The notes under the pieces: model-generated
Seen by the model: the letters and a program-made list of their open reading frames with translations, nothing else
What the model was told of the DNA's origin: nothing
Database searches by the model: none
In this document: positions 55,018 to 59,210 of the stretch, piece after piece
Position numbering within the stretch: position 1 is the first letter of the stretch
Layout of the letters: each line of letters begins with the position of its first letter
Made by a program: the position numbers and the translations under genes
From: Candidatus Melainabacteria bacterium 17Bon1m
GTDB taxonomy: Bacteria > Cyanobacteriota > Vampirovibrionia > Obscuribacterales > Obscuribacteraceae
Assembly: GCA_032128875.1 (NCBI GenBank)
Contig: JAVLKG010000002.1
Span: 192,001-256,000, forward strand
Direction of reading: 5' to 3'
DNA: 64,000 nt

Positions 55018-56316
55018 CTACTCTACAACGGACTTTGCTCTCTGGAACATTTTTACCAGCTTTTCAAAATCCTTATCATCGAGCGCATCTGATGCTAGTT
55101 CCAGCTGTTTCACCAATTCTTGAATTGCTGCTTGCAGCTCTTCTTTGTTCTGATTGAAAAGGTCCAGCCACATTTCTGGCGGGCTCTCCATCAAGCGCGC
55201 GAGTTGTTTGAAGGCTGGACCGTGTAATTTCAATTCGTGCTCGGTCACGTTTTGGTCCGCAATTGATGCGCCGAGTGCGACTGCAATCAATTGGACCAGG
55301 TGGCTTGTGCGGGCGAGCACTTTGTCGTGTGATGCCGGCGATGCTTCAACTGGCTTGAGACCGAGACCTTCAAGCCAGCGTCTAAATCGTTTTACTGACA
55401 TTTGCGAGGACTTGTTGGTTGGAGTCAGGCAAAATACCGCATCATTGGTTGCCACCGCAGATGATGCATCCAGTCCTGATTTCTGCGAGCCAAACAACGG
55501 GTGCCCGCCGATAAAATCCGCACCGTGAAGGTCCAAATTCTCAGCTATAGTGCAGATTTCCTTCTTGGTCGACGTGACGTCAACAACTAATTGCCGACGC
55601 GAAAGTTTTGGCGCAATCGATTCCAGCAAGTCAATGTTCTTCTTTGGAGGCGCAGCCAAAATGATAAGGGAAGATCGTTCGGCGGCATTTGATGCCTTAG
55701 TTTCGGCGCAGTCGATCAGCCCTTCGCCGAGCGCTTTTTGCAAGACGTCTGGAGCATCGACTGCGGTGATATTTGTTTTCGGAGAGTGCTTGCGGATCAA
55801 TCTTGCGATTGTTCCACCAATGAGGCCAAGACCAATGATTGTTACTGTGGGAAAGTAACGTTGGGGATTGCGGGTCTGGGCGACCGTTTGCTCAGACGAA
55901 TCTTGGCTCGAATTTGCTGCGACTTGGTCGCGCTTCAATTCTTCTTTCGATTCTGAGTTTGCGTTCGCGCCCGCTTGTGCTTTTGGGCTTGTGGTCTCGC
56001 TGAGTTTTTCCTGCAGACCGCGGCTGCCGGCCAACATGGTCGTGTAGATGTCGACCAGTTGCGCGGCGATAACGGGGTCTGATGCTACTGCGGAGACGCG
56101 GCTAAGAACTTCCTTCTCGCGCTTGTCGTCCAGCACCGGTTTGTTCATGCGCTTTTTAGCTTCGCCGATTTCTTTGCAAAGCATGAGCCGTTCGTTGATC
56201 AGGTTGGCGATCAACTCGTCGAGTTCATCAATTCGCGCTCTTGATTCTTCCAATTTAATTGTTGGCTTTCGCCAATCCAGCTCATCGATTTCATCTAATT
56301 GTAAATGCATTGACAT
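55018..56316 (-). CDS. tyrA: Chorismate mutase (AroQ) - prephenate/arogenate dehydrogenase fusion
   Basis: LEESRARIDELD...ER...IGEAK...DDKRE; IIGLGLIGG, DVTSTK, GGHPLFG, HD...TSH; ATG overlaps the aroF TAA. Confidence 0.92.
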   Translation of the reverse strand: MSMHLQLDEIDELDWRKPTIKLEESRARIDELDELIANLINERLMLCKEIGEAKKRMNKPVLDDKREKEVLSRVSAVASDPVIAAQLVDIYTTMLAGSRGLQEKLSETTSPKAQAGANANSESKEELKRDQVAANSSQDSSEQTVAQTRNPQRYFPTVTIIGLGLIGGTIARLIRKHSPKTNITAVDAPDVLQKALGEGLIDCAETKASNAAERSSLIILAAPPKKNIDLLESIAPKLSRRQLVVDVTSTKKEICTIAENLDLHGADFIGGHPLFGSQKSGLDASSAVATNDAVFCLTPTNKSSQMSVKRFRRWLEGLGLKPVEASPASHDKVLARTSHLVQLIAVALGASIADQNVTEHELKLHGPAFKQLARLMESPPEMWLDLFNQNKEELQAAIQELVKQLELASDALDDKDFEKLVKMFQRAKSVVE

Positions 56317-57257
56317 TACCCCCGAGCTGTTTTGCGCGCAATGCGTTTACGCAGTGTGAGTTTGCCGGCGGATTTTGAACCAATGCCTTGAACCACTGTG
56401 ATCTGTCTTTTCTTTTCTACGTCGCCTGCGACCGAGCGGCCAACAGCGGCGGCGATAGGTTTGATGGATTCGACCAGCTCGACCATGTCTTCGAGGGACA
56501 AGGCTTGGCGGGCATCAGAGACTGACTTTTCCGGTTCGGGGTGGCACTCGATGATCAGTCCATCGGCTCCGCAGGCGACAGCGGCACGTGCCAGGTCTGC
56601 GACCAGTTCGCGTTTTCCGGCTGCGTGGCTCGGGTCTACGATGACGGGCAAGTGTGTCAGTTGTTTGAGAGCGACGACTGCGCCGAGGTCGAGCACGTTT
56701 CTGGTGAATGTGTCGAAGCTGCGGATGCCGCGTTCGCAAAGTACGACATTGGGGTTGCCGTGAGCCATGATGTACTCGGCCGCCAGTAGCATTTCTTCGA
56801 TGGTTGCGGAGAGGCCTCTCTTCAGCAACACTGGCTTTTTGGCTTGGCCAAGGGCTTTGAGCAATTCAAAGTTTTGCATGTTGCGGCTGCCGACTTGCAG
56901 CATGTCTGCCTTTTCATCGCAGGCAGCCAGCTGTTCCACAGACATTACTTCTGTGACTGTGGGCAAGCCATGCTTCTGGCTCATGGATTGTAGGATGTCC
57001 AGCCCTTCTTCGCCGAGTCCTTGGAAGGCGTACGGCGACGAGCGAGGCTTGTGCACACCGCCGCGAATGGCGCTGACAGAGCCTTTCAGCTTTTGTGCGA
57101 CGATTTCCATTTGCTCGGCATTTTCTACTGTGCATGGTCCGCCGATGATGACGATTGGCTTGCCGCCGACTTTAAGAGAGTCACCGATGGCGACTTCGGA
57201 TGTCTGACAGCCTTCGGCTCTGGCGGCTAATTTGACTTGGTTGCTAATCTCGCTCAC
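56316..57257 (-). CDS. aroF: DAHP synthase, type I-beta, without N-terminal regulatory domain
   Basis: [48 protein letters not shown] at 57257 follows GAGGA. Confidence 0.95.
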
Positions 57258-57274
57258 TGTTTGAATCCTCGTGT

Positions 57275-57311
57275 GAAATAGTGAACCCGGGGGACGTATC
57301 CTCCCGGGCTC
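57275..57311 (-). terminator. Attenuator 2 terminator-like hairpin
   Basis: GAGCCCGGGAGGA-TACG-TCCCCCGGGTTC followed by ACTATTTC (weak U-tract). Confidence 0.6.
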
Positions 57312-57346
57312 TTCAGGTAACTGTTTGGTGCACTCAGCGTGCCAGC

Positions 57347-57475
57347 TTAAACCTGCCCGGGCGTTCCCCCTGCAAAAAAGAAGAAGTACCAGTAGTAAGA
57401 AGTTGATGGGCATTGAGTCTTCGCGGACTCAGCGCTTCGGAGGGTTAGGTTGTGGGTTATTTCGGTGTTCATCAT
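57347..57475 (-). CDS. Aromatic amino acid leader peptide 2 (42 aa, MMNTEITHNLTLRSAESAKTQCPSTSYYWYFFFFAGGTPGQV)
   Basis: Hand translation; eight consecutive Tyr/Trp/Phe codons and no other aromatic residue. Confidence 0.8.
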   Translation of the reverse strand: MMNTEITHNLTLRSAESAKTQCPSTSYYWYFFFFAGGTPGQV

Positions 57476-57485
57476 CTTTAGCTCT

Positions 57486-57521
57486 TAAACAAAAACCGCA
57501 GACCTTGTTGAGTCTGCGGTT
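57486..57521 (-). terminator. Attenuator 1 intrinsic terminator
   Basis: AACCGCAGAC-TCAACAAG-GTCTGCGGTT-TTTGTTT, perfect 10 bp stem plus U-tract. Confidence 0.85.
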
Positions 57522-57547
57522 CACCAGTTGGGACAAAGTAAGCTATC

Positions 57548-57598
57548 TCACCCCTGGCGAACCTCAAAGTACCAAAAATAAAAACCAAAATTGCTCAC
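57548..57598 (-). CDS. Aromatic amino acid leader peptide 1 (16 aa, MSNFGFYFWYFEVRQG)
   Basis: GTG start after AAGAGAG; 7 of 8 consecutive codons are Phe/Tyr/Trp. Confidence 0.82.
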   Translation of the reverse strand: MSNFGFYFWYFEVRQG

Positions 57599-57650
57599 GA
57601 CTTACTCTCTTAAATGCCAGGGCGTGCGCCCCGGGCGTTCCAATGCACCC

Positions 57651-57679
57651 ATAGTATGTGCATACCGACGGTGTGTCAA
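57651..57679 (-). promoter_or_regulatory. Sigma70-type promoter of the aroF-tyrA operon
   Basis: TTGACA-N17-TACTAT on the minus strand. Confidence 0.85.
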
Positions 57680-57925
57680 TCAAAAAGTGTCCTGACGGCC
57701 CACGAGTGTCTGCAAAAAAATACGATGAGGATGCCGCAAATGCTTGGTAGTACAGGTTTTTGGGCGTGAAGCTTTTAGGTGCCATTGTGTAAAGCGTCAA
57801 TCGAAACATATCTGCGCAAAACCAAAACCACGCAAGTTCCGCATGTTTGGCGCGTCTTCACATACTTATGCTGACCGAACGTTCAACAAATGAATGCGAT
57901 CGAGAGAACTTCTTTCATTCAATAG

Positions 57926-57985
57926 ATCTCTTTGTCCAAATCTCTTCGTCTAAATCTCTTCGTCTAAATCTCTTTGTGCAAATCC
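57926..57985. repeat. Tandem 14 bp repeat ATCTCTTYGTSYAA x4
   Basis: Units start at 57926, 57940, 57954, 57968. Confidence 0.85.
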
Positions 57986-58253
57986 TTATATAGAAGAAGT
58001 TGGATCAAATCCGGGAAATTGGCTCCCTCTTTTCCGTCAGGGTGGGAAGATTGTTATAGGCATCAGTTATAAGCATCAATTCTTCCGCGGTTTTCGGAAT
58101 TTTTGGTTTTGGGCGTTCAAAGTAGGCACTATTGAGATTTTGCTGCGTCAGCGTTGTGAAAGGAAACTCTGATATCCACTAAGAGCAGGAAGTTTGGCGG
58201 TTCGCCATGGGCGAGAGACGAGACTGCGTTGAGAGTCTGTAAGAGAGAAGAAC

Positions 58254-58724
58254 ATGAGTTCAATGAACATTCTGGTCGCCATTGATGATTCGACGTTTTC
58301 GGACGCCGCTATCTCTTCTGTAATAGAGCGGAGCTGGCCGGAGGGCTCGAAGTTTAAGCTGCTCAGCGTCGTGGAGCCGTTTCACCCTGAATACGCCGGC
58401 TGGCATACAAACTACATGCCTGTGGCTGTTGAAGCTCAAAAGGAGTTGGTCGAGGCGGCAAAAACGCTGGTCAACGAGAAGGTAAAGCAGCTGACGAGCA
58501 CTTTTGGACGGGAAAGCGTCTTGGCTGAGGTTCGAGAAGGATATGTCACGGATACGATTCTGGAGGCAGCCAAAGAATGGCCGGCAGACCTCATTGTCGT
58601 TGGGTCACACGGGCGCACAGGCATCACCCGCTTGCTTTTAGGTAGCGTCTCGGAGGCGGTTGTATCTCAGGCGCCTTGCTCGGTCGAAATAGTAAAAATG
58701 CCCAAAAAGCATGCTAAGGCTTAG
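58254..58724 (+). CDS. Universal stress protein
   Basis: ILVAIDDS, DLIVVGSHGRTG...LLGSVSEAV...APCSV. Confidence 0.95.
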   Translation: MSSMNILVAIDDSTFSDAAISSVIERSWPEGSKFKLLSVVEPFHPEYAGWHTNYMPVAVEAQKELVEAAKTLVNEKVKQLTSTFGRESVLAEVREGYVTDTILEAAKEWPADLIVVGSHGRTGITRLLLGSVSEAVVSQAPCSVEIVKMPKKHAKA

Positions 58725-59210
58725 TTTTCGGCATTTTATTAGATTGAGTCTTTGTTAAAACGGCATGAAAAAGACGCCCCCTGGAGGGCGCCTGATTTCC
58801 TGAATGCCGGAATTAGGCGTGCTTTTCGGCTTCGTCTTCCGGAAGGTTTTCCCAAGAGTCGAAATAAGCCTTCTTTCCGCCCATCCAAAGCGAAAGAAGA
58901 ACCCAAATTCCCATAATGGAAATCAGAACGATTGGCGTTGTTGAAGCTGGCGTGTTTTCCATTGTTCACCCGGTATTTGACTGTTTTGAAAGCTGAAAGA
59001 CCTGCTACTGGCTGAGTATACAGCAATAGCCACTCCTCAGATTATAAACATTTGAACCGCAGGTTGGTAGTATTAACTCCAATTAGCTTCCTCTTGTAAT
59101 TGCCACAGATTGAGGCTCTGGCGCTATAAAGCGGCTCATGGCTTCTATTAGCTATGTGCTATAAAGACGGTTGGTTTCAACACCGTCAGGGTGAGAAGAG
59201 GAATTTTTCA

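Follow-up and report, generated by a model that had tools for sequence, protein, structure and literature searches.

How is the expression of aroF, the gene for 3-deoxy-D-arabino-heptulosonate 7-phosphate (DAHP) synthase, the step with which the synthesis of all three aromatic amino acids begins, set in an organism in which this gene is preceded by a pair of short open reading frames (ORFs) crowded with phenylalanine, tyrosine and tryptophan codons? The question is raised by a stretch of 64,000 nucleotides (nt) from Candidatus Melainabacteria bacterium 17Bon1m (assembly GCA_032128875.1, contig JAVLKG010000002.1, positions 192,001 to 256,000), hereafter called the window, in whose own numbering all coordinates are given. 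A preliminary description, made from the letters alone, had proposed two Phe/Tyr/Trp-rich leader-peptide attenuators in series before this gene, and the comparative evidence presented below supports that proposal. We conclude that the element is real and very probably functional, and we put at roughly 80% the probability that two ribosome-mediated (leader-peptide) transcription attenuators in series control the operon formed by aroF and a chorismate mutase/prephenate dehydrogenase gene.

Two aromatic leader ORFs with putative attenuation units precede aroF

The elements proposed earlier are all present on the minus strand and in the order promoter, leader 1, terminator 1, leader 2, hairpin 2, GAGGA ribosome-binding site, aroF (Table 1). 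Leader 1 encodes VSNFGFYFWYFEVRQG, which becomes MSNFGFYFWYFEVRQG when its GTG start is read as Met, and contains the run FGFYFWYF (57589-57566), in which 7 of 8 residues are aromatic; the corresponding run of leader 2 is YYWYFFFF (57397-57374). Both units follow the same plan of three segments, A, B and C, in which A takes up the final 11-18 nt of the leader ORF, the stop codon comes 0-3 nt after A, and the aromatic run lies upstream of A. An intrinsic terminator stands between leader and gene in unit 1 (12 pairs and a U run, called by a terminator scan, with TTTTTGTTT as the sequence 3' of the hairpin), and unit 2 has a hairpin with a weak U tract in the same place. The 3' part of B1, GAACC(GCAGA), doubles as the 5' arm of terminator 1.

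This arrangement suggests the following mechanism. Segment B would pair either with A, forming an antiterminator, or with C, forming together with the U run a terminator. As long as tRNA-Phe, tRNA-Tyr and tRNA-Trp are amply charged, the ribosome would reach the stop codon and cover A, so that B:C forms and transcription ends; if any of the three tRNAs were scarce, it would stall in the aromatic run a few codons upstream, leaving A free to capture B as it emerges, and the polymerase would read through. Expression of aroF would need read-through at both units, and its output would approximate the product of two similar responses. Because both leaders carry all three codon types, the units do not appear to be specialized. 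Leader translation, stalling, termination and the multiplicative effect are what we infer from the arrangement.

The leaders stand out in the genome as a whole. Scanning all six frames of the 7.55-Mb genome gave 26 stretches in which 7 or more of 8 residues are aromatic. Most are poly-T runs, and two are leaders 1 and 2, on one strand, 192 nt apart and before aroF. The RNA motif of unit 1 has a single occurrence in the genome. Three other mixed aromatic stretches looked, by eye, like chance frames.

Table 1. Features of the aroF leader region and operon (window coordinates; motifs written in the sense of the minus strand).
Feature	Position	Strand	Description
Leader 1 ORF	GTG 57598 to TGA 57548	minus	16 codons + TGA
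Segment A1	57551..57568	minus	UUUG-A-GGUUCGCCAGGGG; antiterminator 1 5' arm; ends at leader 1 stop codon
Segment B1	57513..57532	minus	CCC-AA-CUGGUGAACC-G-CAGA; antiterminator 1 3' arm; overlaps terminator 1 5' arm
Terminator 1	57487..57522	minus	hairpin 57522-57493, GAACCGCAGACU / GGUCUGCGGUUU, 12 pairs; U run UUUUUGUUU
Leader 2 ORF	ATG 57475 to TAA 57347	minus	42 codons + TAA; ends ...STSYYWYFFFFAGGTPGQV
Segment A2	57351..57362	minus	GCCCGGGCAGGU; antiterminator 2 5' arm; one base short of leader 2 stop codon
Segment B2	57300..57318	minus	ACCUG-AAGAG-CCCGGGAGG (pairing form ACCUG-AAGAG-CCCGGG); common to antiterminator 2 and hairpin 2 5' arm
Hairpin 2, GC-rich	57308-57286	minus	CCCGGGAGG...CCCCCGGG; tail UUCACUAUUUC
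Segment C2 and weak U tract	57271..57296	minus	CGUCCCCCGGGUU + CACUAUUUCACAC; hairpin 2 3' arm; relatives have TTTTTT here
Central hairpin between A2 and B2	57319..57347	minus	starts at leader 2 stop codon; conserved in genus
GAGGA ribosome-binding site of aroF	57266..57270	minus	conserved in genus
Sigma-70-type promoter	57651..57679	minus	-35 TTGACA 57679-57674, 17-nt spacer, -10 TACTAT 57656-57651; 10/12 matches
Small 5' hairpin	57617..57635	minus	just 5' of leader 1 ribosome-binding region, between promoter and leader 1
aroF, type I-beta DAHP synthase	56316..57257	minus	313 amino acids (aa), GTG start 57257; NF006421, E 2.2e-117
Chorismate mutase/prephenate dehydrogenase fusion	55018..56316	minus	432 aa; start overlaps aroF stop

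The tandem leaders recur in the genus, the family and many photosynthetic cyanobacteria

Orthologous loci were collected by a protein search of 40 related genomes. Short F/Y/W-rich ORFs, which the preliminary description had suggested looking for in relatives, are conserved: both are present at 12 of 12 same-genus loci, where the RNA segments are nearly invariant, and across the genus A2, B2, C2 and the aromatic run hardly change. Leader 2 is an open, indel-free frame over the 26 codons before its run in 13 of 13 sequences of the genus, and both other frames contain stops. Outside the genus, unit 1 and the orthologue were found in 11 of 12 same-family genomes, the twelfth having only a distant, longer enzyme, and at least two aromatic short frames were present in 9 of the 11 genomes that bear unit 1. 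No aromatic frame was found within 700 nt upstream at five loci from other families of the class or in the twelfth family genome. Unit 1 stands alone at locus L020, and the second unit of L019 is doubtful. At a further melainabacterial locus (L021:1159-1422, identical to a locus of a named metagenome-assembled genome (MAG), L075), tandem copies of unit 1 (MSSRRFYFWYFCEVHLG and MNTCKSGFYFWYIKEVHLG) replace the pair of unit 1 and unit 2; judging from this sequence, the tandem state seems to be kept even where the second unit has been replaced.

To go beyond the family, a pattern covering B1 and terminator 1 was scanned against one genome each for 185,579 species. It yielded at least 119 stretches, 80 of which were examined first; all counts of pattern matches given here and below are among the matches listed. 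The matches come mostly from photosynthetic Cyanobacteria, with some MAGs of Obscuribacterales/Melainabacteria, and about 100 photosynthetic cyanobacteria carry both leaders. Carriers include Nostoc, Calothrix, Tolypothrix, Leptolyngbyaceae, Stenomitos and a Gloeobacterales MAG, among others. The suggestion that the arrangement is peculiar to the lineage of the window therefore had to be given up. Eight of the 80 matches, from other phyla, were discarded as unrelated terminators without a leader.

Among the first 80 loci, leader 1 was found in 67 of 68 unique instances and leader 2 in 64 of the 66 that extend 200 nt or more downstream; of the two exceptions, one (L061) does have a leader 2, with an unclear start. 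The other 39 matches gave leader 1 in 30 (L144 was missed by the regular expression only) and leader 2 in all 29 with enough downstream sequence. All three residues, F, Y and W, occur in leader 1 in 67/68 and in leader 2 in 63/66. A cyanobacterial leader 1, 5' of the motif, reads for example MLNTNSYFYFWFRVVHRE; a leader 2, lying between terminator 1 and the gene and followed by a hairpin and TTTTTT of its own, reads MTYFSSWFYGFYFWPRVSSG. Most starts are ATG, and the combination of start codon, aromatic run and stop behind A is a recurring one. Where codons of the run differ, the differences are mostly synonymous or swap Phe and Tyr. The gene 3' of the leaders was always a short DAHP synthase of about 285-300 aa. 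In one record labelled Candidatus Sericytochromatia (L131), both the leaders and the AroF are nearly the same as in Stenomitos (Leptolyngbyaceae), and we regard its label or binning as doubtful.

The strict unit-1 pattern was found in 39 of 401 sampled genomes of the phylum, a figure that is a lower bound; one family contributed 21 of its 45 sampled genomes, and a family of small genomes none of its 169. Five pattern-negative genomes were probed: in four, the only DAHP synthases are of a longer kind, with 47-52% identity, and the fifth has no match. The open frames of these long enzymes measure 338-360 aa, apart from one of 806 aa with an internal stop. At four of the five pattern-negative loci no aromatic frame was found in the 900 nt upstream, and L154 has only two frames with 5 aromatic residues in 8, about 790-900 nt upstream. 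These results indicate that the element is widespread, not universal.

Covariation and folding point to competing helices in both units

The preliminary description had also stated that in each unit an antiterminator overlaps the 5' arm of the terminator, and this is borne out by the covariation of A1 with B1, by the common register of A2, B2 and C2, and by constrained folds. In cyanobacteria, A1 reads (G/U)GGUUCACCGGG and its complement B1 reads CCCGGUGAACC(GC); there and in the window, 2-3 nt separate A1 from the stop codon. In an alignment of 35 sequences, the 13-pair A1:B1 helix is 86.9% paired and has 36 double-change cells, compared with 12.4 ± 2.5 in shuffles (0 of 500 reach 36). Controls slid out of register are 25-45% paired, and none of the bases that the search pattern fixes is in a covarying column. 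In an anchored count over 86 unique sequences, 88-100% of the pairs are canonical at 10 of the 11 core positions, the innermost one reaching 69%, and a single position occurs as G-C in 42 sequences, as A-U in 15 and as U-A in 14.

For unit 2, cyanobacterial A2 reads GUUCCGGG, B2 reads CCCGGAAC, and C2 is again GUUCCGGG, followed by six U. Here, the pairing of B2 with A2 and that with C2 share one register: across 50 unique triples, 82-100% of pairs are canonical at nine positions, and at one position a three-way change is seen in five triples, with A to G in B2 and U to C in both partners. The 5' arm of terminator 2 has an 8-13-nt complement at most cyanobacterial loci, with its end 0 or 1 nt away from the stop codon of leader 2; shuffled controls rarely attain such a length.

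The peptide ends of the leaders, EV(H/R)xG and RGSPG, might be taken as conserved at the peptide level. This was rejected on the evidence of L023, where the conserved A1 sequence falls in a different reading frame; A1 is therefore conserved at the RNA level, and the two tails are by-products of A1 and A2. Two other explanations may be weighed. The first is that the conserved hairpins form a protein- or ligand-binding RNA switch, the short ORFs being incidental. Conservation of A1/B1 and A2/B2/C2 at the RNA level, including the frame change in L023, would fit such a switch; against it, the combination of start codon, aromatic run and a stop immediately behind A recurs at the frequencies given above (67/68 and 64/66), aromatic residues are kept through changes within the run, and there are only two alternative hairpins, with no conserved multi-helix pocket. 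Nor did an Rfam 15 cmscan of 56000-59000, at E values up to 10, return a leader family; it returned three chance snoRNA matches only, and the region has no Rfam family match that would favour a switch. We consider this explanation very improbable. The second is that the two ORFs encode functional aromatic-rich micropeptides next to ordinary terminators unrelated to aroF control, which would account for the conservation of the short ORFs themselves. However, beyond the aromatic run the peptides are free to vary in sequence and length, their C-terminal residues track the RNA helix, the ORFs always lie directly 5' of the short DAHP synthase gene, and the terminator competes with a helix that contains the ORF end, so that we give this explanation practically no weight.

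Constrained folding of the window sequence is consistent with serial attenuation by stalled ribosomes. With the ribosome early in the aromatic run or absent, the full A1:B1 helix is predicted, and terminator 1 is cut to 7 pairs with GG before the U run; before the 3' arm of terminator 1 is transcribed, the A1:B1 helix extends over the whole 5' arm. Masking A1, as a ribosome at the stop codon would, gives the full 12-pair terminator 1. In unit 2, A2:B2 forms in folds made before C2 is present, and with a ribosome at the leader 2 stop A2 is masked and hairpin 2 is left. In some constrained folds, the leader 2 Phe codons UUCUUC (57374-57390, minus strand) pair with the aroF GAGGA (57266-57270) about 100 nt downstream. 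This pairing was not seen in cyanobacterial leader 2 sequences and may be an artefact of the segment chosen for folding.

Evidence against two serial attenuators, and the status of unit 2

Several results weigh against the model of two attenuators in series. As to the leaders, leader 1 of the window begins at a GTG codon, and its ribosome-binding site, AAGAGAG, is weak. In leader 2, the excess of variation at third codon positions is mild over the 26 codons before the run in the genus, with 15, 11 and 20 variable sites by position, and the codon differences comprise 48 synonymous and 91 non-synonymous changes. As to the RNA, terminator 1 is 100% paired yet nearly invariant in the 35-sequence alignment, with 3 double-change cells, and 22 of these 35 sequences were selected by a pattern that fixes terminator 1. 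No 1:2 protector hairpin or upstream partner for A1 or A2 appeared in the folds, leaving three segments per unit; for lack of a fourth, protecting segment, an untranslated leader should read through. Equilibrium folding favours hairpin 2 over antiterminator 2 (-32.3 versus -26.4 kcal/mol), so the switch of unit 2 would have to be kinetic. A kinetic choice between structures is also made in other attenuators. Hairpin 2 of the window has a poor U tract (tail UUCACUAUUUC) and was called by neither of two terminator scans, and this U tract is degraded in most of the genus as well, so that termination by unit 2 may be poor in these sequences. Finally, four RNA-labelled runs, all from one sample, contain the leader region only in genome-like contigs of 4.7-9.6 kb with flat depth, the longest records reaching 137-182 kb. 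The contigs of one run are interrupted at 57502-57515, within the hairpin of terminator 1, a site that the sample's three other runs span; the break is probably an assembly effect.

The state of hairpin 2 bears most directly on a third explanation, namely that only unit 1 attenuates transcription in this species and that unit 2, its U run lost, is translated and structured and acts otherwise, through pausing, Rho entry, RNA processing or stability, or aroF translation. Besides the tail and the failed scans of the window, this would fit the failure of the terminator 2 finder in 10 of 13 genus sequences, which share the window type of tail; at terminator 2 of L006, L010 and L013 the T runs are better. 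It fits less well with the near-invariance of A2, B2, C2 and the aromatic run in the genus, or with homologous cyanobacterial units 2, which end in TTTTTT; among 88 loci with leader 2, 72 have a hairpin and a T run at unit 2. In addition, partial termination is possible even with weak U tracts. We regard a unit 2 without attenuation as unlikely. The caution of the preliminary description, which had called hairpin 2 only terminator-like, was justified.

The element travels with a short DAHP synthase

The AroF of the window lacks part of the enzyme to which it is otherwise similar: its residues 3-276 align to positions 64-337 of the 338 positions of NF006421, leaving the first ~63 profile positions unmatched. 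We take this missing N-terminal part to be the regulatory domain of related I-beta enzymes. Its absence would explain a heavy reliance on attenuation, and control may rest on the leader. The fusion protein encoded downstream has a chorismate mutase domain at residues 20-106 and a prephenate dehydrogenase domain at 157-430.

Sequence identity separates the enzymes linked to leaders from others. Identity of the window AroF to leader-linked enzymes is 64-75% within its own family and about 51-92% (median 70%) at loci found with the pattern; to the DAHP synthases of other Vampirovibrionia, which are without leaders, it is only 49-53%. One named Obscuribacteraceae record shares an identical AroF segment with a same-genus locus, which places the window genome in this family of non-photosynthetic Cyanobacteriota. 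A quick AroF tree was built from 119 rows (high-scoring segment pairs of at least 220 aa without stops). In this tree, a clade of short, leader-linked enzymes (107 rows) is split from the long type with a Shimodaira-Hasegawa-like approximate likelihood ratio test (SH-aLRT) value of 99, and within the short clade an Obscuribacteraceae group (29 rows, support 93) lies beside, not within, a cyanobacterial group (76 rows, support 90), with two rows that belong clearly to neither. By these sequence comparisons, the element travels with one enzyme type, the short DAHP synthase. The tree fits common descent, and an old transfer would be compatible with it too.

A second short DAHP synthase gene lies on contig 8 of the genome (7719-8498, minus strand). 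Its product is 66% identical to the window AroF, and no aromatic leader was found within 500 nt upstream of it.

Delimiting aroF itself required a decision between two starts. The preliminary description had noted that both leaders fall under the ORF cut-off and lie beneath spurious frames, and indeed a 365-aa ORF from ATG 57413 (56316-57413, minus strand) extends aroF through hairpin 2 and leader 2, which it covers in another frame. Relatives do not keep this extension as an open frame, their open frames measuring 324-343 aa; we therefore rejected it as spurious and took GTG 57257 as the start of aroF. The case has a consequence for gene calling: leaders of this kind fall short of the usual ORF cut-offs, and automated annotation may place the start of aroF wrongly and hide leader 2.

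Upstream of the leaders, the TTGACA of the promoter is invariant across the genus alignment (13 sequences), and the promoter match taken alone is at chance level (1 found versus 1.2 expected). The small 5' hairpin reads CCGGG-ACGC-CCGGG in relatives of the genus, where it is followed by AGAAA and its 3' side reaches the GGAG ribosome-binding site of leader 1; it may affect leader translation or RNA stability. In three family members (L020, L021 and L023), a frame that ends just before the promoter region resembles, by eye, the C-terminus of another aromatic-pathway enzyme, and the attenuator may there lie inside a larger aromatic gene cluster.

Relation to known attenuators and meaning

In the classical systems pheL-pheA and trpL-trp of Escherichia coli, a leader ORF contains codons for the amino acid of the pathway itself, and the position of the ribosome selects between an antiterminator and an intrinsic terminator. 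These systems have one leader, one amino acid and four segments with a 1:2 hairpin, whereas the element described here combines two serial leaders, each with three amino acids, and three segments per unit. Tandem riboswitches and tandem T-boxes likewise place serial terminators under one signal, which is thought to sharpen the response; there, the RNA directly senses a ligand or uncharged tRNA, whereas here the translating ribosome would be the sensor.

Closer precedents exist for parts of the design. The aroR leader of Corynebacterium glutamicum, as summarized in a review (Neshat et al. 2014, in PMC11802643), has a Phe-Tyr-Phe motif and attenuates a DAHP synthase operon, with a response to Phe and none to Tyr. 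It resembles the present element in having mixed aromatic codons before a DAHP synthase gene and, compared by its description in that review, differs in being a single leader, in having no Trp codon in the quoted motif and in belonging to another phylum. The predicted uORFC-13-1 motif of Acholeplasma (PMC8632094) places a Phe-codon upstream ORF beside an intrinsic terminator upstream of aroF; it is defined by 'at least one phenylalanine residue', has 24 representatives from one genus and environmental sequences, and, as described there, differs from the element here in being a single unit. Two units in one leader are described for the Salmonella mgtCBR transcript, where the short ORFs mgtM and mgtP each drive an attenuation-like switch; as reported there (PMC3641672), the units respond to different signals (ATP and proline), act additively and are called a singular example. 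In contrast to the present case, in which both units carry the same three codon types, mgtCBR is not an amino-acid biosynthetic operon and has two signals. Two leader peptides are also reported for ermB.

In the literature searched (without subscription journals and supplements), we found no leader-peptide attenuator in cyanobacteria or Melainabacteria and no tandem same-signal leader pair in an amino-acid operon; either may have been described before. A keyword search of the available text of a 2015 review of cyanobacterial regulatory RNAs (PMC6596454) gave no use of 'leader' or 'attenuator'. The novelty tentatively claimed in the preliminary description thus stands in part: the tandem same-signal form was absent from the literature searched and from Rfam, but single-leader control of aroF was known from C. 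glutamicum aroR, and tandem attenuators were known from mgtCBR. What is notable over known leader-peptide attenuation is the tandem same-signal design, the readout of three amino acids and the breadth across Cyanobacteriota.

A more far-reaching interpretation, which we offer tentatively and would place a little short of even odds, is that the twin attenuator is an ancestral module of Cyanobacteriota, inherited by Obscuribacteraceae and oxygenic cyanobacteria alike along with a DAHP synthase free of an allosteric domain, that a series of two minimal three-segment switches puts a squared, pooled readout of the charging of tRNA-Phe, tRNA-Tyr and tRNA-Trp in the place of enzyme feedback, and that it represents the first recognized ribosome-mediated attenuation in cyanobacteria. 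If two attenuators do act in series at aroF, classical leader-peptide attenuation would extend to Cyanobacteriota, and the locus would exemplify, in nature, two translational attenuators that act in series on the same signal. Culturable strains, such as Nostoc punctiforme (record L139), also carry the element, and the idea that the serial design confers ultrasensitivity is therefore testable by reporter genetics.

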